Positions 4,503 through 48,415 of a stretch of 64,000 nucleotides of DNA are shown here, in pieces. The notes under the pieces are model-generated. The model was not told the DNA's origin. It made no database searches and saw only the letters and a program-made list of their open reading frames with translations. The stretch comes from Patescibacteria group bacterium. GTDB lineage: Bacteria; Patescibacteriota; Patescibacteriia; 2-12-FULL-60-25. The position numbers were made by a program, and so were the translations under genes. Position 1 is the stretch's first letter. The number at the start of each line of letters is the position of its first letter. Where the stretch lies: positions 299,865 to 363,864 of the forward strand of contig JBAZVB010000002.1 of the NCBI GenBank assembly GCA_041661105.1. Reading direction: 5' to 3'.

Positions 4503-6905
4503 TTAGAGAATGCTAATTCCAAAATAGTTGGCCAGTTGCAGGAAGGTGCCAAAAAAAGAAGCGACAATCAAAGCCGTCACGGTCAGCGGGATGGCCATAA
4601 AGGCGATAGCCGAAATCGGAAGCAGAATATCGGCAAAGATGATTACACCGTCTTTGACATTGGAGATGGTTTTCTCCAAGGGCAGGGAACCCGCGGAAGG
4701 TTTTTGTTCGAAGAAAGGTATTTTACCGTCGGCCACATGTTTATTAATAAGGTCGATATTCCATTCCACCCAGAGGGTCAACAAAGATACTCCGGATTCG
4801 CTAGAACCGATTTCACCGATATCCAAAAGATTTTTGAAAGCTTGTTTGCCGCGTTTAAGGCTCTCAATTTTAGCTTTAAAATCTTCGATCTGTTTCGTCG
4901 CTTGATCCGCCTTAAGTTTGCTGCTGACTTGGTTGGAAAGCAGTTTCAAGGCAAAGCCGATCTCATCCATCTTGCCTGGTCCGCCTGAACCGGCGGCCTG
5001 CCCCCGGCCTGCCTGCGAGACCAACTGTCTGGTAGATGGCGGCTCGGGTTTGACGTTGCGCAATCTCGAGGAAGGCGCCCCGGTCAATTGTTCTCCGGCT
5101 ACGGTGTCCCGTCGCTGTATGGCTTGGAAGGATCTCAGCCTGTCTATATCGCTCTCAGGAGTACCTCCTCCGGCTGTCTCGTCTTCTATTTCTTCTTCCA
5201 TGGCCATGGTTCCTGGACCGCGTTCTGCCTGCGGGTAATAGCCGCCCTGTTGCGCGAGCGGATTAAAAAATTGTCCGTACGCCATGGATGGGGTCAGTCC
5301 TTCTTCCATGCCTTCGGCCAGTTCTGATTCGAGCCCGCTACCACTTAATTCTAAACCTTCTTCGGTCGCCATGGCCTCTTCGTCTCCACGCTCCATGGCT
5401 CGACCTCTCCAAGCTTCGTTTTGCGCGGCGTGGAGATCCATGGCCCGGCTAATCGGAGGTTTGATTTCTTGAGGGCCAACGCTTTTAGAGCTCCTACGTC
5501 CTGGTCGTCCCAGCGTCCCAGCGTCCCACGTCCCTGGGACGACTGAAACTTGCGACGAGGGGCTTTTGGTTGTTGGCAAATTTGGCGTCCCTCTGGCTCC
5601 AAAGGCAGAGGCGGCTGACATGGGTTGTTCGGTCTGGGTCGAGGGGATAGCCAAATCCTGTCCCGTGGTTTGGGCTTGAGCGCGACCGCCGGGAGATGGA
5701 GCTTGTTCAACTTCTGTTGTCCGCCGTGTATCAGGCCGTGAAATTTCCGTCCCAGCTCCACCTTGGCGTGATGGCAGAACTGGAATTCTAGTTGCTTGAT
5801 CTGGGCCTGGTCTGGTTCCAACGAGATTTTGAGGAGAAGGAGTCGTTCGCGCGGCCGATCCCCGTGCGGGTTGGCGGCCGTACGTCCCCAAACGTGACCG
5901 ACGAGGTTGTATGGGTGTTTGCCTGGCTGGTGAAACGGATGAGATGGGCGAGAGAGGTGGCGGTAAGCTCACTTCTGATTCGGCTGGTGCCTGGATAGAT
6001 ATTTCTTTGAAAATAGCTCCGGTCTGTCCACCGGCTGTTGGAATCGGGATTTTAATCCTTGTCTCCGTTTCACCTTTGGCCTCTATTTGAGCTGTTTGAG
6101 GAGTACCTTTTCCACCAGAGGCTGTCGGAGACGGGGGAGCAGGGAGGTTGGGCGCTTGGACTTCGGCTTCGTTTTTAATTTCGCCCTCCGCCTTCAACTC
6201 GACGCCCGGCGCGGCGGGAGCGGCTCCTGTTGCTTGTTGTTGCGGTGCGGCCGCGCTCTTGGCAGGCGCGGCTATGGGCACGTTGGAAATTTCCGGACTG
6301 CGCCCTGCACCAGACGGTGCATGGCCGCGCAAAGCTGCCGGGGATGAGAGAGTTTTTTTCTGGGGAGCCGGAGTTGTCTCCTTTGTTCCACCAGCTGAAG
6401 CTCTTGTTCGTCGACTAACCGGTTTGAGCCCTGCCATGCTTCCCAGAGTTTGTCCGATGGCTCCAAAACCTTTACCCAAAACGGCAGCTTTGGCCGCATC
6501 TAATTTGGTGGATGAACCTTCTGACTTAGCCGAGGCTTCAGCCTGGCTTTTGACTTGCAGATCTTGGTAATTTCGCCGGTCGTAATCTGCAAAAAATGAT
6601 CGGGCCGGAGTTTTTAAATCTTCCGTAAAGATTTTTTTTGGTATGTAAAGGCCAGGTAATTCCTGGATTATAAAAGTGAGGTCGGGTTTGTTCCTTATAG
6701 CGGACGCCGAGTCAAACATTTTTTTGACGACCCCGCGATCAAGTTTGAAAAGATTGTTTTTAAAAGCCTCAACCGTGTCCACGCGGTTGGCTTCGTTGCT
6801 CGAATTGTAATTCGTGACCAGGTTGGCGACTTGGTCTAAGGCTTGGGATTGATTATTGACCAATCCGGAATTCGATGGTGCGTTTTGATTTTTTTCCTCC
6901 GCCAT
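4503..6905 (-). CDS. 800-aa low-complexity (Pro/Ala/Ser/Gly-rich) protein with C-terminal TM segments; function unknown
   Basis: Long ORF on the same strand and tightly packed with its neighbours. The C-terminus VIIFADILLPISAIAFMAIPLTVTALIVASFFGTFLQLANYF is hydrophobic. I recognise no domain. Confidence 0.5.
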   Translation of the reverse strand: MAEEKNQNAPSNSGLVNNQSQALDQVANLVTNYNSSNEANRVDTVEAFKNNLFKLDRGVVKKMFDSASAIRNKPDLTFIIQELPGLYIPKKIFTEDLKTPARSFFADYDRRNYQDLQVKSQAEASAKSEGSSTKLDAAKAAVLGKGFGAIGQTLGSMAGLKPVSRRTRASAGGTKETTPAPQKKTLSSPAALRGHAPSGAGRSPEISNVPIAAPAKSAAAPQQQATGAAPAAPGVELKAEGEIKNEAEVQAPNLPAPPSPTASGGKGTPQTAQIEAKGETETRIKIPIPTAGGQTGAIFKEISIQAPAESEVSLPPPLSPISSVSPARQTPIQPRRSRLGTYGRQPARGSAARTTPSPQNLVGTRPGPDQATRIPVLPSRQGGAGTEISRPDTRRTTEVEQAPSPGGRAQAQTTGQDLAIPSTQTEQPMSAASAFGARGTPNLPTTKSPSSQVSVVPGTWDAGTLGRPGRRSSKSVGPQEIKPPISRAMDLHAAQNEAWRGRAMERGDEEAMATEEGLELSGSGLESELAEGMEEGLTPSMAYGQFFNPLAQQGGYYPQAERGPGTMAMEEEIEDETAGGGTPESDIDRLRSFQAIQRRDTVAGEQLTGAPSSRLRNVKPEPPSTRQLVSQAGRGQAAGSGGPGKMDEIGFALKLLSNQVSSKLKADQATKQIEDFKAKIESLKRGKQAFKNLLDIGEIGSSESGVSLLTLWVEWNIDLINKHVADGKIPFFEQKPSAGSLPLEKTISNVKDGVIIFADILLPISAIAFMAIPLTVTALIVASFFGTFLQLANYFGISIL

Positions 6906-13797: not shown

Positions 13798-14853
13798 ATG
13801 AAAGATCAATTAGAAGCTTTGCGGCTCGAAATCGAGCGCGACGTGAAAGCGGCCAAATCGCTCGAGGAACTTGAGCAGATTGAGGTTAAGTATTTGGGGC
13901 GCAAAGGTCAGTTGACCTCTATGCTCAAAGGCCTAGCCAATGTCTCGGCCGAAGAGCGGCCGGTGCTGGGTGCTCTAGCTAACAAGATTAAGCAAGCGGG
14001 ACTTGATTTGCTCGCCGGCAAGCGGGAATCCCTCGCGTCCAGTCGCTATGACGCGGTGGCCGAAACGGAACGAGTGGATGTGACCGAGCCGGGCACCCGT
14101 CCGCCGGAAGGTCATTTGCATATAATGACTCAAACCATCCGCGAGATCACGGCGATTTTTGAGAAGATTGGTTTTTATCGCATTCGTTATCCGGAGATTG
14201 ATTGGGATTGGTACGCTTTTGAAGCTTTAAACATGCCGCCCGACCATCCGGCCCGCGATGACTGGGAAACTTTTTTCATGGATGCGCCTCTTTCCAAAAA
14301 AGGGAAGATGGTTATGACGCCGCACACCTCCAATGGTCAGATCCACGAGCTTGAACGACATAAATTTCCGATCCGTTTATTGGGCATAGGCAAATGTTAT
14401 CGCCGTCAAATCGACGCCACGCACACACCCATGTTCCATCAGTTTGAAGGTTTGTTGGTAGACAAGGGAGTGAGCATCACGCATTTACGCGGTATCTTAG
14501 ATTATTTTGCCAAGGAATTTTTTGGACCCGGTCGTGTCTCGCGCATTCGTCCGCATCATTTCAGATTCACCGAACCGTCCTTCGAAGTTGATATCTCCTG
14601 CGGCGTTTGCGGCGGTACGGGTCTCGTCAACAAACAAAAATGCAAAGTTTGCAAACGCGGTTGGCTGGAAATTGGCGGTGCGGGTATGGTCCATCCTAAT
14701 GTTTTGAAAGCCACGGGTGTCGATCCCAAGCAATATACTGGTTTTGCTTTTGGATGGGGAATCGAGCGCGTAGCCATGATGAAAGAGGGCGTCAAAGTCG
14801 ATGACATCCGCATCCTCTACCAGAATGACGTCAGATTTCTTAAGCAATTCTAA
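13798..14853 (+). CDS. pheS: Phenylalanine--tRNA ligase alpha subunit
   Basis: Class II motifs FRFTEPSFEVD and GWGIERVAMM. Also the CxxC..CxxC insert seen in many Gram-positive-type PheS proteins. Confidence 0.95.
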   Translation: MKDQLEALRLEIERDVKAAKSLEELEQIEVKYLGRKGQLTSMLKGLANVSAEERPVLGALANKIKQAGLDLLAGKRESLASSRYDAVAETERVDVTEPGTRPPEGHLHIMTQTIREITAIFEKIGFYRIRYPEIDWDWYAFEALNMPPDHPARDDWETFFMDAPLSKKGKMVMTPHTSNGQIHELERHKFPIRLLGIGKCYRRQIDATHTPMFHQFEGLLVDKGVSITHLRGILDYFAKEFFGPGRVSRIRPHHFRFTEPSFEVDISCGVCGGTGLVNKQKCKVCKRGWLEIGGAGMVHPNVLKATGVDPKQYTGFAFGWGIERVAMMKEGVKVDDIRILYQNDVRFLKQF

Positions 14854-14865
14854 TAACCTTCATTT

Positions 14866-14897
14866 CGTCATCCTGAACTTGTTTCAGGATCTCGATA
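14866..14897. repeat. Half copy (first hairpin) of the gtcatcctgaac element
   Basis: cgtcatcctgaacttgtttcaggatctcgata. The 31-nt portion from gtcatcc onward is identical to 16624..16654. Confidence 0.85.
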
Positions 14898-14910
14898 CTA
14901 AACGCAGGCT

Positions 14911-15462
14911 ATGTCCAACTCCTCAAAAAAGTTAACAAAGATTCTAGATTACGGTTTAGCTTTATTATCGATTGTTATTTTTATAACGGCCTTTTTTACT
15001 TCATCCAAAGAATTTATAACTACAACGTTTTCTCAAGTCAAAATTTGCATCTCATCTTCTTTTTGTTTCTGGCCGGGATTCATAGTTCTAGCATTGTTAT
15101 TAATCTCGGCTTTGGTTTTGTTCTTGATAATACGTACGAGAACGAATAAAGAGAGATGGTATTTATCTTTAAACAAAGCAGCTTGGCCATCCTTTATTTT
15201 TGGAGCTATTTTGCTGATTGTATCAATTTTAAAATTTTCAAATGCCACGGAGTTAATAGATCTTCCCTCAATGTTATTGATGTTATTTTCTGTAATTGTA
15301 CCCTTCCTAACATTAATTATTTTCTGTATTAGTTTCATTGCAAGTCCCAAATCCAAAATAAGAGAAAACATGGTTTTCTTCAGAACTATATCGATTGTAG
15401 GTTTTATCGTGAGTTGTATATTAGGACCGGAATTATTGATAGTACTGTTTGTAATGTCTTAA
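14911..15462 (+). CDS. Small multi-pass membrane protein (183 aa), unknown function, AT-rich
   Basis: About 5-6 hydrophobic segments. Low GC relative to pheS and pheT. Confidence 0.55.
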   Translation: MSNSSKKLTKILDYGLALLSIVIFITAFFTSSKEFITTTFSQVKICISSSFCFWPGFIVLALLLISALVLFLIIRTRTNKERWYLSLNKAAWPSFIFGAILLIVSILKFSNATELIDLPSMLLMLFSVIVPFLTLIIFCISFIASPKSKIRENMVFFRTISIVGFIVSCILGPELLIVLFVMS

Positions 15463-15468
15463 GAGAAT

Positions 15469-15831
15469 ATGAAAAAAAGAATACTCGTGCCTATACTGAT
15501 TGGTTGTGCCTTAGAAATTGGGGCGGGGATCTTGTTTTTAACGAATGCCACTTCTGATTTGGTTTATACTCTGATTTTGTCCGGGCTAGTTTTTGTAGGG
15601 GTAGGAGTAGTTATTTTGATATTCGCAAAATATTTTGAAAAAAGTCATATACAAATGCATGGCATATCGTTGATACTTCTTGGATTGCTTTCAACCATTC
15701 CGATTATTTATGGTCTGGTTAAGTCCGCGTTAATGAAAGATTGGCTAGCATTTCTGATGGTATTTGTTATTTTTCTGTGTGCTTCATTTATTTGCGGTTT
15801 GGGACTATTTTTTTGGAAAATAAAACGTTAA
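15469..15831 (+). CDS. Small multi-pass membrane protein (120 aa), unknown function
   Basis: Four hydrophobic segments. Starts 7 nt after the previous stop. Confidence 0.55.
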   Translation: MKKRILVPILIGCALEIGAGILFLTNATSDLVYTLILSGLVFVGVGVVILIFAKYFEKSHIQMHGISLILLGLLSTIPIIYGLVKSALMKDWLAFLMVFVIFLCASFICGLGLFFWKIKR

Positions 15832-15871
15832 ATTCCTCGTAATTCGTAATTTTGAATTCGTAATTAAAAGT

Positions 15872-15961
15872 ATGAACCTCCTAGTCTCCTACGATTGGCT
15901 GAAAGAGTATGTCAGCCTTAAAGAAAAGCCCGAAGATTTCGCGGCGCGGATTTCGCTTTGA
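15872..15961 (+). pseudogene. Remnant of the pheT 5' end (29 codons then stop)
   Basis: About 88 nt colinear with pheT 17207 onward, with 2 mismatches that are both synonymous (GAA/GAG, TAC/TAT). Encodes MNLLVSYDWLKEYVSLKEKPEDFAARISL then TGA. Confidence 0.9.
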
Positions 15962-15987
15962 GTGGTAAAAACTAAACATTGTTTAAT

Positions 15988-16350
15988 ATGACTACGACTG
16001 ATCGTTTCGAACCATATCTTGAACCTCTGTATGTGCCAGCGTTTTTCGGTTGGTTGACTTTGATTTTTGATCATTATCTGACTCGAAGTACTTTTCTTCT
16101 GTATGTTGGCATGATTTTTTCTGGCTTACTTATTCTTACTTCAATTCTGGTCATAGTGTACGAATTTCTTTTATTTTTTAGAAGAATAAAACCACGCGCA
16201 TTGATAGATGGAAACGTTAAAATATATAAATTTATCAGATGGATATTTGGTGCAGTAGGCCTTGTTTCGGTTCTAATTTCTGTCGGGTTTATCCTTGCTC
16301 TTGGATCAATGCTGTCATCAGGTCCTTGGGATAAATTAGATCAAATATGA
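15988..16350 (+). CDS. Small membrane protein, paralogous to the C-terminal half of 16660..17172
   Basis: MTTTDRFEPYLEPLYVP... versus MTAIDPFEPYLEPLYLL... in the later gene. Three to four TM segments. The ORF track starts it at 15979 with an alternative start codon. Confidence 0.55.
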   Translation: MTTTDRFEPYLEPLYVPAFFGWLTLIFDHYLTRSTFLLYVGMIFSGLLILTSILVIVYEFLLFFRRIKPRALIDGNVKIYKFIRWIFGAVGLVSVLISVGFILALGSMLSSGPWDKLDQI

Positions 16351-16583
16351 AAAAGTCTTCCAGATACATAATAAGTGCTGTCCTGGGTGCAATAGGCGTG
16401 ATGAGCTATGTCTTTTATGTCGCTGTTACTTATATTGATTTTGATCCGGATCCAAATATTGGTAGCGTAGCCTTTGTTAAACCAGAAATAGTATCAGGGG
16501 TTATTTTATTCGGTGGTATATCGTTATTGATCGGTGCAATATTAGCAATCAGCACGTTATTCTCGAAGTCTAAAAACATATGA
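16347..16583 (+). CDS. Small two-TM membrane protein (78 aa)
   Basis: ATGA overlap with the upstream gene. Two hydrophobic helices. Confidence 0.5.
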   Translation: MKKSSRYIISAVLGAIGVMSYVFYVAVTYIDFDPDPNIGSVAFVKPEIVSGVILFGGISLLIGAILAISTLFSKSKNI

Positions 16584-16613
16584 ACCTCCTAGTCTCCTAC
16601 GATTGGCTAAAGA
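16580..16613 (+). pseudogene. Second, shorter remnant of the pheT 5' end
   Basis: atgaacctcctagtctcctacgattggct is identical to pheT 17207..17235, then the sequences diverge. Confidence 0.85.
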
Positions 16614-16623
16614 TTCTTTTGAA

Positions 16624-16654
16624 GTCATCCTGAACTTGTTTCAGGATCTCGATA
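16624..16654. repeat. Half copy of the gtcatcctgaac element
   Basis: gtcatcctgaacttgtttcaggatctcgata, identical to the copy downstream of pheS. Confidence 0.85.
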
Positions 16655-16659
16655 TCAAT

Positions 16660-17172
16660 ATGCCTAAAACAGTTTCCTTTACACTAATGATTGTTGGTTT
16701 TTTGATTTCCTCCACTCTTTGGGCTTGGATTGCTTACCCGCAACAATGGTATCCAGGGTTGTATGTCGTTGGTTTCTATGGAGTCATTTTGATGTTTATT
16801 GGAGGGATAGGAGCCCTCAAAGAAAAAATTCGTAATTTAAACATGACCGCAATCGATCCTTTTGAGCCGTATTTAGAGCCTTTATACTTACTTGTACCCG
16901 GCCCTATTGGCATCATTTTTTCTATTTTTGTTTGGGAGAATGGATTGGCTATTATGTTTTTTTACTACACGATGATGACAATTAGTGGCCTAGTTGTAAT
17001 ATATTTGGGACTTCTTATTCTCAGAATACTACCAGCCAAAGCATTGGTTAAAGAGATTGGACCAATTTATTCAAGAATAAGGTGGGTTTTGGCAACAGCA
17101 GGCGTAGCTGGATTATTTTTTACTTTTTTATGTGTCGTAGCGGCCGTTTTCAGAATAAATCTCAGTTCATAA
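16660..17172 (+). CDS. Multi-pass membrane protein (170 aa), unknown function
   Basis: Start taken at MPKTVSF. The ORF-track start at 16603 would translate the pheT remnant and the repeat (VILNLFQDL). The C-terminal half is paralogous to 15988..16350. Confidence 0.55.
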   Translation: MPKTVSFTLMIVGFLISSTLWAWIAYPQQWYPGLYVVGFYGVILMFIGGIGALKEKIRNLNMTAIDPFEPYLEPLYLLVPGPIGIIFSIFVWENGLAIMFFYYTMMTISGLVVIYLGLLILRILPAKALVKEIGPIYSRIRWVLATAGVAGLFFTFLCVVAAVFRINLSS

Positions 17173-17206
17173 ATTATAGATAAGTAAATAAGAATTTCAA
17201 AAATAT

Positions 17207-19789
17207 ATGAACCTCCTAGTCTCCTACGATTGGCTGAAAGAATACGTCAGCCTTAAAGAAAAGCCCGAAGATTTCGCGGCGCGGATTTCGCTTTCTGGTC
17301 CGTCCGTGGAAAAGATTCTGCCGCTCTATTCGGAACTCGACGGGATCGTGGTCGGAGCAGTCCGGTCACTTAAGCCGCACCCCCAGGCGGATAAACTTCA
17401 GGTCGTGTCCGTCGATATAGGACGCACAGGACGCGAAGGACGTTCAGGACTCTTGTCGTTAGTCTGTGGCGGATCAAATCTTTATGTAGGACAAAAAGTC
17501 GCCGTGGCCCTTGTTGGCGCTAAAGTCAGATGGCATGGTCAAGGAGATTTGATTGAGCTTAAGCCGGCCTTAATCCGCGGCGTCAAAAGCGAGGGCATGA
17601 TTTGTGCGGCGAGTGAAATTGGTTTGGGCGAGGCTTTCCCACACGAAGAACGCGAGATTTTGGATTTGGGTAAAGAAATACCAGAGATGGACGTCGAGCC
17701 AGGCACCCCGCTATCGGATGCTTTGGGTGGCAAGGACGACGTGGCCATGGATATTGAAGTTACCAGCAACCGTCCTGATTGTATGGGTATGGTTGGCATG
17801 GCTCGCGAAGCCTCAGCGATTTTGAAACAGCCTTTTAAGTGGAAAGAGCCAAGCCTAAATTCAAAATTCAAAATTCAAAATTCAAAATCAGGACGCGGGA
17901 CGACGGGTGTGAAAGTTACCATCGACGCTAAGAAAGCTTGTTCACGCTACATTGGAGTCAGAATCGACAACGTGAAGGTCAAAAAGTCACCTTGGTGGCT
18001 CAAACGTCGCTTAATGTCGGCCGGTATCCGTCCCATTAATAATCTCGTGGATATCACAAATTACGTCATGCTCGAAACGGGTCAGCCGATGCACGTGTTC
18101 GACGCGGCTAAGCTACGTCGTCATCCTGAACTTGTTTCAGGATCTAAGACACGTAACACGGAGATGCTGAAACAAGTTCAGCATGACACACCACCGGAGA
18201 TCCGCGTGCGATTCGCACGGACGGGGGAGAGGATAATGGCTTTGGATGGTAAGACTTATCAGTTGGACGATAAGATTTTGGTGATTGCTGATGCCGAGCG
18301 TCCGGTAGCCATTGCTGGCGTGATGGGAGGAGAACAGACCGGAGCTGACGAAAAGACAACCAACATCGTGCTCGAAGCCGCGACTTTTGATCTAGTCATC
18401 GTTCGCAAAGGTTCACGCAAGATTAATTTGCAATCAGATTCGCAACTGCGTTTTGAAAAAGGTTTGTCCCAGATGGCCCCGCCTTCAGCCATGGCACGAG
18501 CGATTGAGTTGGTCTTGGAATTAGCCGGAGGTCAGATTGTCGGCACACCGGCTGACGTTATGCCCGCCGCCTATAAACCTCTGTCATATTCCGTCACGAC
18601 GGATGAGGTAAATGGTTTGATTGGCATTGAAGTTAAAAAGACTGAAATGGTGGATGTGCTCAAACGCCTGGGTTTTGGAGTCAAAGTTACCGGTAAACAC
18701 ATCAAAGCCACTGTCCCATGGTGGCGTGATCATGATATTGAAATGGGACGCGACTTGGTTGAGGAAATCGCCCGCGTCATTGGTTATGCCAGCATCCCTT
18801 CGATTGTGCCTATCGCCGTCGCGCCTCGTGAGACTGATCCGGTTATCAAATGGGAGGATCGCCTCAAAGACGTGGCTAAAGCGGCGGGTTACACGGAGGT
18901 TTTTAGTTGGTCTTTCGTGTCAGAGGATTTGTTGCGCAAGGCCAGTTATGACCCGGCTCATCTTTTGCGCCTCCAGAATCCTTTGTCTAACGACTGGCTG
19001 GTCATGCGTCCCTCGCTTATGCCTGGCATGTTGCAGGCTGTGGCGGATAATCAAGAACGCGAAAAAGATCTTCATCTTTTTGAGTGCTCAAATGTTTACA
19101 TTCGTCCCACGTCCCACGTCCCACGTCCTACGGAAAGGACGATCAGGACGAAGGACGATCAGGACGTTTGGTCTGACCTGCCGGATGAAGTGCCGGAGTT
19201 TACGCTCATGATTCGCGAGGCGGATAATCAAGATCCTTGGCGCAAGGCCAAAGGATTCGTTGAACATCTTTTCGAGGAGTATGGCATCGGCGAGGTGCAT
19301 TGGAAGCGCGTCTCACGTGACGCGGTTTGGCATCCCGGTCGCACGGCCCAGGCTTTTAGCGGCGATAAGCTGTTGGCCACGGTCGGGGAGATCGGTCCGC
19401 AGATGTCCGAAGCCTTTAAGATCAAGGGTCGAGTTGGCGCAGCCGTGGTTAACATTCGTGAGTTCATCTCTTTTGCCAAAATTTCCAAAGCCTATGTGCC
19501 GCCCACGCCTTATCCCGAGGCTAAGCGCGATTTAGCATTGGTTGTCGATCGGAATGTCGATTATCGTGAACTGGAATTGGCCATCCTCCGCGCGGATGAA
19601 CGTATCTTAAAAGTTGAATGGTTTGATACTTACGCCGGCAAGGGGATTGTTGACAACAAAAAATCAGTGGCCATGCATTTGACTATCGGCTCACGCGAAA
19701 AAACCCTCGAAAGCTCTGAGGTGGATGGCGTGCTGGAAGATGCGGTTTTAGCTTGTAAGGAAAAGTTCAAGGCAGAAGTAAGAGGATAA
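17207..19789 (+). CDS. pheT: Phenylalanine--tRNA ligase beta subunit, carrying several repeat-derived in-frame inserts
   Basis: N-terminal MNLLVSYDWLKEYV, tRNA-binding domain, and B3/4, B5 and anticodon-binding-like regions. At 860 aa it is longer than I would expect for PheT, which I attribute to the inserts. Confidence 0.95.
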   Translation: MNLLVSYDWLKEYVSLKEKPEDFAARISLSGPSVEKILPLYSELDGIVVGAVRSLKPHPQADKLQVVSVDIGRTGREGRSGLLSLVCGGSNLYVGQKVAVALVGAKVRWHGQGDLIELKPALIRGVKSEGMICAASEIGLGEAFPHEEREILDLGKEIPEMDVEPGTPLSDALGGKDDVAMDIEVTSNRPDCMGMVGMAREASAILKQPFKWKEPSLNSKFKIQNSKSGRGTTGVKVTIDAKKACSRYIGVRIDNVKVKKSPWWLKRRLMSAGIRPINNLVDITNYVMLETGQPMHVFDAAKLRRHPELVSGSKTRNTEMLKQVQHDTPPEIRVRFARTGERIMALDGKTYQLDDKILVIADAERPVAIAGVMGGEQTGADEKTTNIVLEAATFDLVIVRKGSRKINLQSDSQLRFEKGLSQMAPPSAMARAIELVLELAGGQIVGTPADVMPAAYKPLSYSVTTDEVNGLIGIEVKKTEMVDVLKRLGFGVKVTGKHIKATVPWWRDHDIEMGRDLVEEIARVIGYASIPSIVPIAVAPRETDPVIKWEDRLKDVAKAAGYTEVFSWSFVSEDLLRKASYDPAHLLRLQNPLSNDWLVMRPSLMPGMLQAVADNQEREKDLHLFECSNVYIRPTSHVPRPTERTIRTKDDQDVWSDLPDEVPEFTLMIREADNQDPWRKAKGFVEHLFEEYGIGEVHWKRVSRDAVWHPGRTAQAFSGDKLLATVGEIGPQMSEAFKIKGRVGAAVVNIREFISFAKISKAYVPPTPYPEAKRDLALVVDRNVDYRELELAILRADERILKVEWFDTYAGKGIVDNKKSVAMHLTIGSREKTLESSEVDGVLEDAVLACKEKFKAEVRG
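18120..18187. repeat. Full gtcatcctgaac...ttcagcatgac element inside the pheT reading frame
   Basis: gtcatcctgaacttgtttcaggatc...gagatgctgaaacaagttcagcatgac, translated in frame as HPELVSGSKTRNTEMLKQVQHD. Confidence 0.85.
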
Positions 19790-19828
19790 AAAAGTAGAGA
19801 CGTCCCGTGGGACGTCTCTACTTTTTTA
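19789..19828. terminator. Bidirectional intrinsic terminator between pheT and the convergent gene
   Basis: aaaaagtagagacgtccc..gggacgtctctactttttt: a 13-bp perfect stem flanked by an A-run and a T-run. Confidence 0.8.
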
Positions 19829-20101
19829 TAACCCGTCAACTTCTTTTTTACCGGCCGCCAGTTCGCGGACTTGTTCTTTGTCGAGTCCGAGCAAGAGAGC
19901 CTGAAATTCTCCAACGTGAGTCTTTTCTTCCTTGGCAATTTCCATCAGGACTTTTTTGATTTTGGTTGACTTTGACTTAGCCGCGAACTGCTCGTAAAGA
20001 TTAACTGCATCCAGCTCGGCGATGATAGCCGCCCGCAGGATTTCTTTATCTATGTTCTGTTGCGGAACTTTACTTAAATCGATGGGGAGGGAAGACATCA
20101 T
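19826..20101 (-). CDS. Small ferritin-like protein resembling encapsulated ferritin (EncFtn/rubrerythrin-like)
   Basis: IIAELDAVNLYEQF and IAKEEKTHVGEF match the ELxAVxxYxQ and EExxHxxE metal-site helices of EncFtn-type proteins, as I recall them. Confidence 0.55.
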   Translation of the reverse strand: MMSSLPIDLSKVPQQNIDKEILRAAIIAELDAVNLYEQFAAKSKSTKIKKVLMEIAKEEKTHVGEFQALLLGLDKEQVRELAAGKKEVDGL

Positions 20102-20240
20102 AGAAAATTAACAATTAACAATTAACAATTAAGAATGTCAGAAACAGTATACCTTATCCTGCCAAGATTGACACAGCCTGTAATCAGGGGTAAAAATCGG
20201 TGGTTGTTGAGGTTGTTGTTCCGTCACAATTGGAGGTTCC

Positions 20241-21107
20241 ATGGAAACCAGGAAGATCGCGTTGGCTTGTTTCATCGGCGGAGCGCTTTGCTCTCTCGTC
20301 GCGTTGCTCTTCGCGCCGGCCTTTTGGTGGCTCGGCCTGATCGCCGGCTTTGTCGGCGGCTATCTAGCCTACGATTTCCGCGAGGTGCCCCGAGCAGTTC
20401 CCAAAGCCGCGCAGGCAGTGGGTGAGGTCGTTGCTGAAGAATGGTCTGATGTCAAAAAGTCGCTGGTCAGACCGCGGCCGATCATTTATGCGGCAACACT
20501 TTTGACAGTAACCATAGGCATCGCCTGCTGGCCTTCGTGGCGCAACCATATGACGGGTGATGCAGTAGGATTCGCATACATCGTCCTGATGGGCTTCGCA
20601 TGGTGTGCCGTATCCTTGTTTCTGATGTTTCTTTTGAAGATGGGGGTAGAAGCAGAACGGTGCTTCTTTGTCTGGCCCTCTGATAAAGGCATAGGGTACA
20701 ATTGGTACCAGAAAGAGCTCGAGAAAGGATTCACGGAAAAACCTTACACCTACGCCAATGCCTACTGGTGGATCGCTCGAGGACTAGACATCTGTCTCCC
20801 TACAGCCATTACCTTCCTACTCTGTGACATGTGGATGTACCTGGCGATCGGTATCGGCTACGGCTGCTACTACTTCGGCCTGTTCTGCCGGGAACTCTTC
20901 GAACTCATCCATTCGCACAAGCGTCTGCTCTGCGCCATCGATTGTGCGATTGGCGGAGCCATGAGCTACCTCCTACTCGCCAGGTCCGCGCACACGCTGG
21001 GCGCGCAAGTCGCGCTCGTCCTCTTCGGCGGCTTGCTCGGCGCCGGCCTCGGCGTCCTGAACTGGGAGGTTGTCTCCAAGCGCCTCCTGCACGTTGCCAA
21101 GAGCTAG
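20241..21107 (+). CDS. GC-rich multi-pass membrane protein, unknown function
   Basis: TTGACA-17-TAAAAT promoter at about 20169-20198 and a GGAGG RBS. Several TM segments. Visibly higher GC than the flanks. Confidence 0.6.
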   Translation: METRKIALACFIGGALCSLVALLFAPAFWWLGLIAGFVGGYLAYDFREVPRAVPKAAQAVGEVVAEEWSDVKKSLVRPRPIIYAATLLTVTIGIACWPSWRNHMTGDAVGFAYIVLMGFAWCAVSLFLMFLLKMGVEAERCFFVWPSDKGIGYNWYQKELEKGFTEKPYTYANAYWWIARGLDICLPTAITFLLCDMWMYLAIGIGYGCYYFGLFCRELFELIHSHKRLLCAIDCAIGGAMSYLLLARSAHTLGAQVALVLFGGLLGAGLGVLNWEVVSKRLLHVAKS

Positions 21108-26700: not shown

Positions 26701-27364
26701 TCCCTTTAAGTACATGGCATCCAAGCTGAGCGGCGTTGTCTCGCCGATTTCGAAGTTGCCAGAGTTGAAGAAGGAAAAGAAGGCAAGGATCGGTGGCGTC
26801 ATCACGACCGTCAAAAAAATCTATACCAAAAAAAACGAACCGATGCTGTTTTGTCGTTTGGAAGACGGGATTTCAGACTGTGAGGTGGTGGTCTTCCCGC
26901 GGGTTTATCAAGACACGGTCGATTGTTGGGTAGAGGATAAGGTTGTGGTCGTCAGCGGTCGTCCGGCCGAAGACGCGGGCAAGTGGAAACTTTTGGCCGA
27001 AGCGGCTTATGAGGTCACGCCGCAGAATATAGACGAGATCGCCAGGTCAACAGGTGTCAGTGATCAGGTGTCAGTGATCAGTAAGGACGGCCAGGACGAT
27101 CAGGACGTTAAGGACGATAGAGGATGTTCAGTGTCGGATGAAGAGAAGCCAGTCGTCCTGTATGTCAGCGCCACTTTGTCTGAAACAACGGTCCGCAAGC
27201 TACGTGAAGTTTTTGACGCCAATCTCGGCACCCAGCCGGTTGAATTTTTAATTGATGACGTGGAAGGTCGCCGCCGGGTCAAAGCCTCGGCCAAAATCCA
27301 CCTGACACCGGAAGCTATCGCCCAACTCGAATCGCTCTTAGGACCGAGAACGGTCACATTCTGA
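23771..27364 (+). CDS. dnaE: DNA polymerase III alpha subunit
   Basis: PHP domain FVHLHVHSMYSLSDAMG, polymerase core, OB fold. Repeat-derived insert near the C-terminus (27051..27127). Confidence 0.95.
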   Translation: MLEDKDEIQRNKAPFVHLHVHSMYSLSDAMGDVDEVVKSAKAKGFDTIALTDHGALYGTIEFYEAAQKEGIKPIIGLEANIAPNLLTDRRPRIDDWTYHLTLLVETHEGYQNLLKLVSISYLDGFYYKPRMDKNILRQYHQGLIALSGCMKGQIPKACQEKDLVKAEAALREYQDIFGVDNFFLELVHHPESPTQIDINQNLIRLSQKTGAPLVATKDVHYIDEDDAEAQDALQCIHAGKLISDTNRFTIRTMDHSMVSADVMIQAFADVPEAIENTRKIADRCNVKLELGKNLLPKFDVPEGETEMSYLRKLSRQGLVERYGNEPTTEAKERMEFELSVVERMGFSGYFLIVHDYVNWAKDHGVIVGPGRGSGAGSIMAYALKITNLDPLHYGLLFERFLNPDRISMPDFDMDFDDVRRKDVIEYVTKKYGADRVAGIITFGTMAARAAVRDVGRVLGWTFQEVDRVAKVIPPPVQGKNIPIHISRKENPELKALDETDPRVTQLLDLASRLEGTSRHASQHACGIVIAPGALVEYAPLQKAQGGDVEQVIQYSLHPCEAVGLLKMDFLGLSNLTIIRECLEIIEAVHGDQINLDYIPLDDEQTFELLGRAETTGVFQLESDGMKRYIRELRPSCIDDIIAMVALYRPGPMQFIDSFIARKHGKEKIVYAHPLTENALKSTYGIPVYQEQVMQVSKDMAGFTGGQADTLRKAMGKKIAKLMAEMREKFINGSVKNGVEQSIAESVFTQFEEFAAYGFCKSHAACYAMIAYQTAYLKSRYPECFMAALLNSDSLNMDRVTIEVEECRRMGINVLPPDVNESFAGFSVIKSTVQPSPERKAGQRGTIRFGLLAIKGLGNDVVEYIIHERKQNGQYKDLADFVKRVQGKYINKKSLESLVRSGAMDRFGDRGQLFYNIENILDFHRQAEREVQSGQFNLFATSAQSPAAGLNLKPSPMVTPQEKLKWEKELLGLYVSEHPFKYMASKLSGVVSPISKLPELKKEKKARIGGVITTVKKIYTKKNEPMLFCRLEDGISDCEVVVFPRVYQDTVDCWVEDKVVVVSGRPAEDAGKWKLLAEAAYEVTPQNIDEIARSTGVSDQVSVISKDGQDDQDVKDDRGCSVSDEEKPVVLYVSATLSETTVRKLREVFDANLGTQPVEFLIDDVEGRRRVKASAKIHLTPEAIAQLESLLGPRTVTF

Positions 27365-47294: not shown

Positions 47295-47366
47295 GTCATC
47301 CTGAACTTGTTTCAGGATCCCAGCACCAATTGCTACGTGAGATGCCGAAACAAGTTCGGCATGACG
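47295..47366. repeat. Full gtcatcctgaac... two-hairpin element upstream of holB
   Basis: gtcatcctgaacttgtttcaggatc-ccagcaccaattgctacgt-gagatgccgaaacaagttcggcatgac. Confidence 0.85.
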
Positions 47367-48348: not shown

Positions 48349-48415
48349 GTCATGCTGAATTTATTTCAGCATCCCACGAAGCTTCGTGAGATCCCGAAAC
48401 AAGTTCGGGATGACG
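48349..48415. repeat. Variant full copy of the two-hairpin element downstream of holB
   Basis: gtcatgctgaatttatttcagcatc-ccacgaagcttcgt-gagatcccgaaacaagttcgggatgac. Stem changes are compensatory relative to 47295. Confidence 0.85.

Follow-up and report, generated by a model that had tools for sequence, protein, structure and literature searches.

Four in-frame inserts of intergenic repeat DNA in pheT, the phenylalanyl-tRNA synthetase beta subunit gene of a Patescibacteria group bacterium

The gene pheT, which encodes the beta subunit of phenylalanyl-tRNA synthetase (PheRS), carries four in-frame inserts in a Patescibacteria group bacterium (GenBank assembly GCA_041661105.1; Bacteria; Patescibacteriota; Patescibacteriia; 2-12-FULL-60-25). 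The gene lies in a 64,000-nt stretch of contig JBAZVB010000002.1 (positions 299,865 to 363,864 of the forward strand), called the window here, and its inserts are made of the same repeats that occupy intergenic DNA of this genome. Of the two possibilities raised in a preliminary description of the window, namely that repeats have moved into coding DNA and persist there as tolerated surface loops, or that they function at the RNA or protein level, the first is supported by the lineage specificity of the inserts, their location in loops and the intact reading frame. A function at either level is neither needed nor excluded. Most probably, pheT is a working essential gene that contains DNA from two repeat populations, only the tolerable copies having been kept. 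Repeats tolerated in surface loops, as known for the Rickettsia palindromic elements (RPEs), are thus the best-supported description of what is found in this Patescibacterium.

THE FOUR INSERTS

The positions, sequences and peptides first given for the four stretches agree with the sequence and its translation on re-reading (Table 1). The frame stays open through all of them without a frameshift, and the uninterrupted 860-aa product has a full architecture of tRNA_bind, B3_4, B5, tRNA_synthFbeta, and FDX-ACB domains, each matched across its whole Pfam profile. Its top sequence matches in the Protein Data Bank (PDB) are bacterial PheRS beta chains (up to E = 8e-110).

Two repeat classes are represented. 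Inserts i, ii, and iv consist of short-word tracts, and insert iii is a pair of repetitive extragenic palindromic (REP) hairpins. Inserts i and ii are single arms, and no structure is obtained on folding. Insert iv, described at the outset as a hairpin, does fold as one (-34.4 kcal/mol, z = -3.96), with four GGACG/CGTCC helices of 5-6 bp and small internal loops between them. The two-hairpin element proposed between FDAAKL and EIRVRF, insert iii, is likewise borne out by sequence and fold (-35.5 kcal/mol, z = -7.0). The net length added relative to the closest insert-free orthologues is 18 nt for insert i (against orthologue L002), 18 nt for insert ii (against L012), 72 nt for insert iii, and 39 nt for insert iv. 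For inserts i and ii the net gain is smaller than the marked span, and part of each overwrites a short ancestral loop.

The words of the inserts also occur in intergenic DNA, as the preliminary description had it, and their counts in the window and in the genome far exceed chance. For example, GTCATCCTGAAC has 6 matches in the window against 0.19 expected, and GGACGNNNNGGACG has 11 against 0.07. The word shared by inserts i, ii, and iv, GACGTCCC/GGGACGTC, is held in the stem of a terminator-like hairpin after the pheT stop codon and has, therefore, a non-coding role too. This is the sole strong site of its kind; no terminator-like site was found at any of the four inserts.

Table 1. Features discussed in the text (window coordinates unless stated otherwise).
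Feature	Position	Strand	Description
pheT	17207..19789	+	Phenylalanyl-tRNA synthetase beta subunit, 860 aa, intact (open reading frame, translation, five Pfam domains)
Insert i	17420..17450	+	Four GGACG words at 9-nt spacing; peptide GRTGREGRSGL; beta-hairpin turn of the tRNA_bind (OB) domain
Insert ii	17857..17907	+	(AAATTCA)x4, then GGACG words; peptide NSKFKIQNSKSGRGTTG; linker ahead of the B3_4 domain
Insert iii	18119..18187	+	Heterodimer of two CGTC/TGTC-tagged REP hairpins; peptide RHPELVSGSKTRNTEMLKQVQHD; B3_4 domain, between FDAAKL and EIRVRF
Insert iii, unit 1	18119-18144	+	Stem ATCCTGAA/TTCAGGAT, loop CTTGT, tag CGTC at 18119-18122
Insert iii, unit 2	18163-18188	-	Stem ATGCTGAA, tag TGTC
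Insert iv	19103..19167	+	Complete word hairpin; left arm (CGTCCCA)x3 + CGTCCTA, right arm GGACG words; peptide SHVPRPTERTIRTKDDQDV; loop of catalytic-like module
Terminator-like hairpin	19786..19829		Bidirectional, 20 bp, directly 3' of the pheT stop; stem contains GACGTCCC/GGGACGTC
Word array in dnaE	27085..27116	+	GGACG words in frame in a second essential gene; peptide KDGQDDQDVKDD
REP heterodimer	47295..47365	+	71 nt; intergenic or 5'-edge, upstream of holB
REP heterodimer	48349..48414	+	66 nt; intergenic
Single REP unit (family D6)	14867..14891	+	Intergenic, after pheS; identical unit at 16624-16648
REP-bracketed GIY-YIG gene 1	G000:C1:244281-244598		Outside the window; locus L078, 244247-244599
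REP-bracketed GIY-YIG gene 2	G000:C1:339512-339829		Outside the window; locus L074, 339511-339863

LOCATION IN THE PROTEIN

Mapping on a PheRS structure places all four inserts in loops of a confident PheRS-beta model. The model was built with AlphaFold2 from a 36-sequence alignment; it has a mean predicted local distance difference test (pLDDT) score of 85.7 and superposes on solved PheRS beta chains with a template modelling (TM) score of about 0.7-0.8. A pLDDT below 50 is found only at residues 222-230 (insert ii), 309-326 (insert iii), 636-654 (insert iv), and 535-542. Insert i forms the turn between strands 65-74 and 79-87 (block pLDDT 63), the loop of insert iii sits between strands 295-299 and 331-336, and that of insert iv between strands 621-632 and 660-671. 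HMMER alignments to PheT of S. haemolyticus and Salmonella enterica gap at the insert sites, with a 6-residue gap at insert i, and the PDB alignments are broken by HMMER exactly at insert iii. The low-confidence loop at residues 535-542 (window 18809-18832) is unrelated to the inserts and holds no repeat words.

LINEAGE SPECIFICITY AND TURNOVER

Alignment of pheT from 29 relatives demonstrates that the inserts are lineage-specific and not conserved ancestral sequence (orthologues are numbered L and genomes G; L001 is the pheT of the window and G000 its genome). The closest orthologues, L002, L012, and L005 (80% nucleotide and 86% amino acid identity), all lack insert iii; L002 and L005 also lack inserts i and iv, and in L012 different inserts occupy loops i and iv. 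Across 19 congeners the insert loops hold differing repeat-derived inserts or none. At loop i, for example, L002 reads GKKQP and, like L005, has no insert; L012 has (TCGAAGC)x4 (peptide SSKLEARSS), L007 has TCGAATC words, and both L001 and L004 have GGACG words. At loop iv, L003/L004, L006, L012, and L013 have unrelated word hairpins, and twelve others have no insert. The two-hairpin element occupies site iii in L001, L006, and L007; L003, L004, and L008 have a CCCCCC..GGGGGG hairpin there (PPLKGG-type peptide), L009-L011 have other inserts, and in ten orthologues the site is empty. The element lies 3 nt further 5' in L001 than in L006 and L007. Recombination was considered as the source of insert iii and rejected, the flanks in L001 still being closest to those of L002/L012, not to L006 or L007.

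The indels of every orthologue pair sum to a multiple of three and are made of repeat words or small hairpins. Even L008 and L013, with 90% DNA identity, differ by five indels (33, 9, 3, 36, and 21 nt), all in repeat-like sequence. The insert loops are recurrent landing sites across the genus, with rapid turnover of their content. Loops within one pheT share more 7-mers than loops of different genomes (0.0205 vs 0.0135, permutation p about 0.006). The idea of genome-specific word pools is weakened by the finding of TCGAAGC and GGACG in several congeners, which points to a genus-wide pool.

Two further insertion hot spots are seen in relatives and are empty in this pheT. One lies near residue 18 (L008, L010, L011, L014, and L015; e.g., DKVRGTKSGARSM) and the other near residue 160 (L003, L004, L005, L008, L013, and L023), where PPLIKGG-type hairpin peptides are found.

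WORD ARRAYS AND THE STOP-CODON FILTER

The word tracts of pheT belong to a genome-wide population. Assignments to genes or spacers rest on a greedy set of open reading frames (ORFs) made for this analysis (1307 ORFs, 89% coding). Arrays of GGACG words number 84 in the genome vs 0 in five shuffles; 51 are intergenic, 26 lie in ORFs, and 7 at ORF edges, which makes them about 15-fold denser outside ORFs. One of the in-frame arrays is in dnaE (Table 1). Tandem Repeats Finder (TRF) detects arrays of period 7 or 14 in 66 word families, 138 of them intergenic, 67 at ORF edges, and 62 in ORFs, whereas arrays of period 6, 12, or 15 show the usual coding bias, with 36 inside vs 5 outside ORFs. The commonest heptamer family is AAAATTC, the word seen in insert ii (20 intergenic arrays, 10 in ORFs, 9 at edges). 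The genes that carry repeats encode UvrD, LepA, a GatA-type amidase, AlaRS, a Mur ligase, TsaD, FtsK, an AddA-like helicase-nuclease, QueA, an RsmI-like methylase, Fmt, PfkB, glycosyltransferases, and DnaE.

Which words are found inside genes depends on their stop codons. Words with stops on both strands make up 0/49 of the in-ORF heptamer words vs 18/123 of the intergenic ones (p = 0.002), and the coding strand of the word is stop-free in 47 of the 49. Insert ii contains the AAATTCA arm only, because the complement, TGAATTT, carries TGA, and both arms could be retained in insert iv, CGTCC and GGACG being open in either orientation. The profile of a phase-variable contingency locus does not fit pheT: it is a single-copy essential gene, its tracts are imperfect, and the differences between orthologues keep the frame.

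Tandem 7-nt units in beyond-chance, mainly intergenic arrays are also the mark of heptanucleotide long simple sequence repeats (LSSRs), of the TAACTGA repeats of Beggiatoaceae, and of the cyanobacterial short tandemly repeated repetitive sequences (STRRs). Heptanucleotide LSSRs are abundant in scattered lineages and are thought to originate by polymerase slippage, as summarized in a later paper (Mrazek et al., 2007, via PMC4679880). TAACTGA repeats can occur in ORFs only in the stop-free orientation, and the same filter is seen here for the heptamer words. Unlike LSSRs and STRRs, the present genome has many different words, often with complementary arms that form hairpins, and at least 62 in-ORF arrays, essential genes included, though 7 is not a multiple of 3.

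INSERT iii AS A CGTC-TAGGED REP

The genome contains 67 REP units of the pattern GTCAT[CG]C[CT]GAA-N5-TTC[AG]G[GC]AT, all with perfect 8-bp stems starting with AT. The stems are of four compensated types, ATCCTGAA, ATGCTGAA, ATGCCGAA, and ATCCCGAA. The loops are 5 nt long (CTTGT in 32, TTTAT in 19, and others), the tails are CTC in 45 units, CCC in 18, and CCA, the consensus tail of CGTC-REPs, once, and GTC is preceded by C in 25 units, by T in 19, by A in 16, and by G in 7 (C or T in 44/67). The units form about 40 loci, with 26 inverted dimers, all of them heterodimers of two stem types, and about 13 of the 67 units are truly intragenic. No target-site duplication was found at the 26 dimers, only a weak bias toward a pyrimidine-rich left and an A-rich right side. 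Six other intragenic dimers or units all read in one frame, RH[AP]EL.S[AG]S...[LP]K[QR]V[QR][HD]D, and this frame is the only one open through the second hairpin.

CGTC-tagged REPs have been described in Proteobacteria, Chlorobi, Bacteroidetes, Spirochaetes, and Thermotogae, and include Rickettsia RPE-4 and RPE-6 and Neisseria dRS3; their tag is CGTC, often TGTC or CCTC, their stem has 8-9 bp starting with A-T, and their loop has 4-5 nt. Dimers located inside genes contribute 20-30 residues to known proteins, tRNA synthetases and DnaE included, and no dedicated transposase is found for these REPs (Di Nocera, De Gregorio, Rocco, 2013, PMC3733652). By comparison with this text description, the REP of insert iii shares the CGTC/TGTC tag, the 8-bp stem starting with A-T, the 5-nt loop and the short tail. 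It resembles family CGTC-2 in being dispersed and mostly intergenic, in forming inverted dimers that are mostly heterodimers, and in having no REP-flanked REP-associated tyrosine transposase (RAYT). RAYT (PF01797) was not found in this genome, estimated to be 100% complete, by a search that was positive in 6 of 14 control genomes. The REPs here differ from those described in their host, as Patescibacteria are a new phylum for them, and in the tail, CTC or CCC and not CCA. Judged by its sequence, insert iii is a 68-nt CGTC-tagged, CGTC-2-like REP heterodimer; by the gene layout described below, it is probably also a divergent member of the Ssn-related hairpin repeats. A full-text literature search for the DNA and peptide strings of the element returned only chance matches in unrelated papers.

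Counted across the genus, REP units number 70 in G000, 99 in G012 (which holds L006), 48 in G004 (L007), 56 in G013, 37 in G011, 25 in G014, and 8 in G020; the nearest relatives of G000 have 0 (G005), 2 (G010), and 2 (G008). A reversed-pattern control gives 0 in every genome. The three genomes with the element in pheT (G000, G012, and G004) are among the REP-rich ones. Across the phylum, exact matches to the 25-nt unit are patchy, occurring in 43 of 301 sampled Patescibacteria genomes (36/247 genera). A 6.2-Mb metagenome-assembled genome (MAG) labelled Rhodothermia (L048/G041) has 29 units with identical stems and loop. Since the label places this genome in another phylum, either the repeat system has spread horizontally or the bin is mislabelled or mixed. 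At a congener locus, L070 (G012:C44:1535-2056 and 4546-4770), arrays of 10 and 5 REP units flank a gene for an 804-aa Wzy_C/TPR membrane protein, an arrangement that recalls the Neisseria NTS clusters near membrane-protein genes.

REP-BRACKETED GIY-YIG GENES

Ten GIY-YIG matches are found in G000, two of which are 105-aa proteins, 90% identical, with PF01541 as the sole domain. Both genes are bracketed by inverted REP units, at distances from the domain of 26 nt on the upstream and 56 nt on the downstream side, and the downstream unit provides the stop codon (after ...GDAETSSA). REP clusters of congeners hold a duplicated 142-codon ORF with a GIY-YIG domain. The homologues in G020 (74%) and G013 (66%) are bracketed likewise, with two tandem copies in G013 (PF01541 at 4.7e-17), and more distant homologues (50-59%) are not. 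No clean correlation exists in the genus between REP copy number and a close GIY-YIG homologue: G012, with its 99 units, has only a stop-containing 59% homologue, and G005 has two homologues of 54-56% and no units of the pattern. Searches of NCBIfam and of PDB sequences with the REP-flanked protein returned nothing informative. From the gene layout, the two REP-bracketed genes are candidate autonomous partners of the REP dimers.

A repeat-nuclease partnership of this layout is known from Neisseria meningitidis, where SsnA cuts single-stranded DNA (ssDNA) beside the NTS hairpin (CGTCATTCCCGCGMAVGCGGGAATCYRG, encompassing dRS3) and lowers transformation by NTS-bearing DNA (Nat Commun 2025, PMC11893778). 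SsnA-type proteins have about 94 aa and Patescibacteria are not mentioned in that paper (PMC11893778). Like NTS, the present repeats are short hairpins that combine an oriented 5' tag (CGTCAT...) with an 8-bp stem and a short tail, and their copies number in the tens to hundreds. A single-domain GIY-YIG gene of roughly 100 aa with a repeat on both sides likewise matches the NTS-ssnA-NTS arrangement, and the Tyr-Tyr-Glu catalytic spacing of the G000 proteins (11 and 47) is that of the residues mutated in SsnA, Y6, Y17, and E64. Unlike the Ssn repeats, the REPs have an AT-rich stem (ATCCTGAA), a 5-nt loop, and a Patescibacteria host, and their intragenic share is about 13/67 vs 2% in N. meningitidis. 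The published SRM pattern, HGTCWYN(0-2)YYVSBRHN(0-5)WNVSBRGN(0-2)RNCYNB, has 10 matches in this genome, none of them a unit of this REP; they include a minor hairpin family, TGTCATCCTCGCGAATGCGGGGATCCA (about 4 copies), which fits the pattern and closely resembles Neisseria NTS. By analogy, the REPs and GIY-YIG genes may form a divergent variant of the Ssn system with AT-rich stems, the nuclease activity being putative.

ORIGIN AND MAINTENANCE OF THE INSERTS

A two-source origin is proposed. The small GIY-YIG (Ssn-like) nuclease genes resident in the genome probably spread the hairpins of insert iii or maintain them. Inserts i, ii, and iv would represent the heptamer and nonamer word tracts (GGACG/CGTCC, AAATTCA) that fill the spacers of the genome, often as hairpins, and such tracts, once inside genes, most likely change in length through slippage or template switching. 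A copy would survive in an essential gene if the summed length changes are a multiple of three, if the word or hairpin is stop-free in the frame used, and if it lands in a loop without disturbing the fold. The inserts would then simply be translated as extra, probably disordered, hydrophilic loops, presumably neutral to PheRS.

Several observations weigh against this reading, or against parts of it. Decayed REP stems were not seen anywhere in the genome. None of the 67 REP units fits the published SRM pattern, tag and architecture agreeing and stem composition differing, and the proposed tie of REPs and GIY-YIG genes to Ssn is drawn from gene layout and domain. In a tree from which the insert columns were left out, L001 is placed with L002 and L012, and next with L005, and L006/L007 and L003/L004 branch separately within the same 8-member clade; site iii is filled in L001 and L006/L007 and not in the lineages between, so that either two insertions occurred at almost one spot, or one insertion was followed by at least two precise losses. 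Silent sites of the REP insert are also more conserved than should be expected of passively tolerated DNA. Between L006 and L007, 18 of the 21 same-residue codons in the insert are identical vs 54% in the rest of pheT (p = 0.003); the corresponding figures are 13/16 vs 45% for L001-L007 (p = 0.004) and 13/17 vs 47% for L001-L006 (p = 0.016). The word tracts gave mixed results in this test. The conserved silent sites could be accounted for by insertion from a uniform pool, whether recent or independent, by gene conversion between copies, or by selection acting on the hairpin.

The last of these belongs to the strongest alternative, which is nevertheless unlikely: that the inserts, especially REP dimer iii and hairpin iv, are kept because the nucleic acid acts, as recognition or cleavage sites of the resident Ssn-like ssDNA nuclease or as hairpins affecting mRNA stability, pausing, or replication, the protein loop being a by-product. 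Besides the silent sites, it is favored by the stems of both pheT units, which are as perfect as in all 67 and belong to only four compensated types, by the stable folds of inserts iv and iii, by the near constancy of the 25-nt unit in 43/301 Patescibacteria genomes and the Rhodothermia-labelled MAG, and by the action of SsnA on such hairpins in ssDNA (PMC11893778). On the other side, the closest relatives manage without these inserts, and nothing in pheT expression, therefore, needs them. Inserts i and ii are unstructured, and no insert has a terminator-like tail. Constancy of a mobile repeat is expected from its own propagation needs or from recent insertion, the silent-site tests are small and their pairs non-independent, and SsnA is inactive on RNA (PMC11893778).

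A more specific form of this alternative, and a slightly less probable one, is that hairpin repeats in essential genes are kept by DNA-level selection as cis-sites of the resident Ssn-like nuclease. It would explain both the perfect stems and the conserved silent sites in coding sequence. In Neisseria, SsnA lowers recombination of incoming repeat-bearing DNA (PMC11893778). If the same held here, an incoming single-stranded gene copy would be cut, and essential genes would be hard to replace by transformation in these DNA-scavenging, competence-dependent episymbionts. Genomes of the candidate phyla radiation (CPR) would then offer a natural case of a nuclease-recognition layer over protein-coding sequence.

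An adaptive role of the extra loops in the protein, as new interaction surfaces or in tuning the editing or tRNA binding of PheRS, is improbable. Insert iii does lie just 7 residues past the invariant His296 of the B3_4 (editing) domain, and the same loops are hit repeatedly in the genus. The peptides at one loop are, however, unrelated between species (GRTGREGRS, SSKLEARSS, LKPPLGKGE, or none) and vary in length, the same peptides are found in unrelated proteins (UvrD, TsaD, QueA, glycosyltransferases), and the loops combine low pLDDT with a low-complexity hydrophilic composition. It is least probable of all, and hardly to be entertained, that the insert-bearing gene is a mis-assembly of the MAG at its repeats, which are classic sites of such errors, or a decaying pseudogene, for which the pheT of congener G007, broken by several stops, could speak, since the 860-aa frame is uninterrupted with every domain complete in the sole pheT of the genome, independent MAGs of other samples have the same kinds of insert in the same loops, all in frame, and two runs of different studies, either of which may be the source sample, contain 97% of the sampled words of the gene.

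COMPARISON WITH RPEs AND IMPLICATIONS

Tolerance of repeat DNA in loops of an essential protein has a known parallel in the RPEs, which are likewise palindromic repeats found in frame in unrelated housekeeping genes, compatible with the fold, and variable among relatives. RPE-1 is about 150 bp long and Rickettsia-restricted, as reported in a secondary source (Ogata et al., 2000, 2002, via PMC10969869). Unlike RPE-1, a single pheT here carries four inserts of two repeat classes, three of them simple word tracts, and the sequence family is different. To the RPE picture are thus added two repeat classes at four loops of one essential gene, recurrent sites of fast turnover and, as a candidate from gene layout, an Ssn-type hairpin pair in pheT with a possible nuclease gene in the same genome. 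No paper reporting such in-frame repeat inserts for Patescibacteria was found in the full-text literature search.

The case shows the extent to which small-genome, symbiont-like bacteria admit repeat DNA into essential genes. For annotators and modellers of protein families, it means that RHPELVSGS...MLKQVQHD or NSKFKIQNS in Patescibacteria are translations of repeats and not motifs. An AT-rich REP of the CGTC type, found in about one of every seven Patescibacteria genomes sampled and not captured by the SRM pattern, is tied to REP-bracketed GIY-YIG genes; by analogy, the Ssn repeat-nuclease partnership may thereby extend to a new phylum. The same tie suggests an answer to the absence of RAYT for CGTC-REPs. 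The conserved silent sites of the intragenic REP raise the question of whether the repeats are merely tolerated, or used.

GENOMIC SETTING OF pheT

The genome measures 1.37 Mb in 17 contigs, and the window is on contig 2. Metagenome runs containing this pheT come from groundwater. An intein or a group I/II intron is not indicated: PheT has no Pfam match of that kind, such as a Hint domain, and no Rfam match was obtained in 14000-20500 at E <= 1. In congener G007, pheT (G007:C3:70128-72642) is fragmented by TGA, TAA, and TAG stops, which marks it as a decayed copy or a product of poor assembly; no intact pheT was seen in that genome with the query used. In the present genome pheT is single-copy, and its only other trace is a 30-aa remnant of the 5' end. 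The 5' end of pheT occurs in three copies, at 15866-15959, 16565-16611, and 17192-17294 (94 nt at 96% identity; 47 nt), and small ORFs separate these copies.

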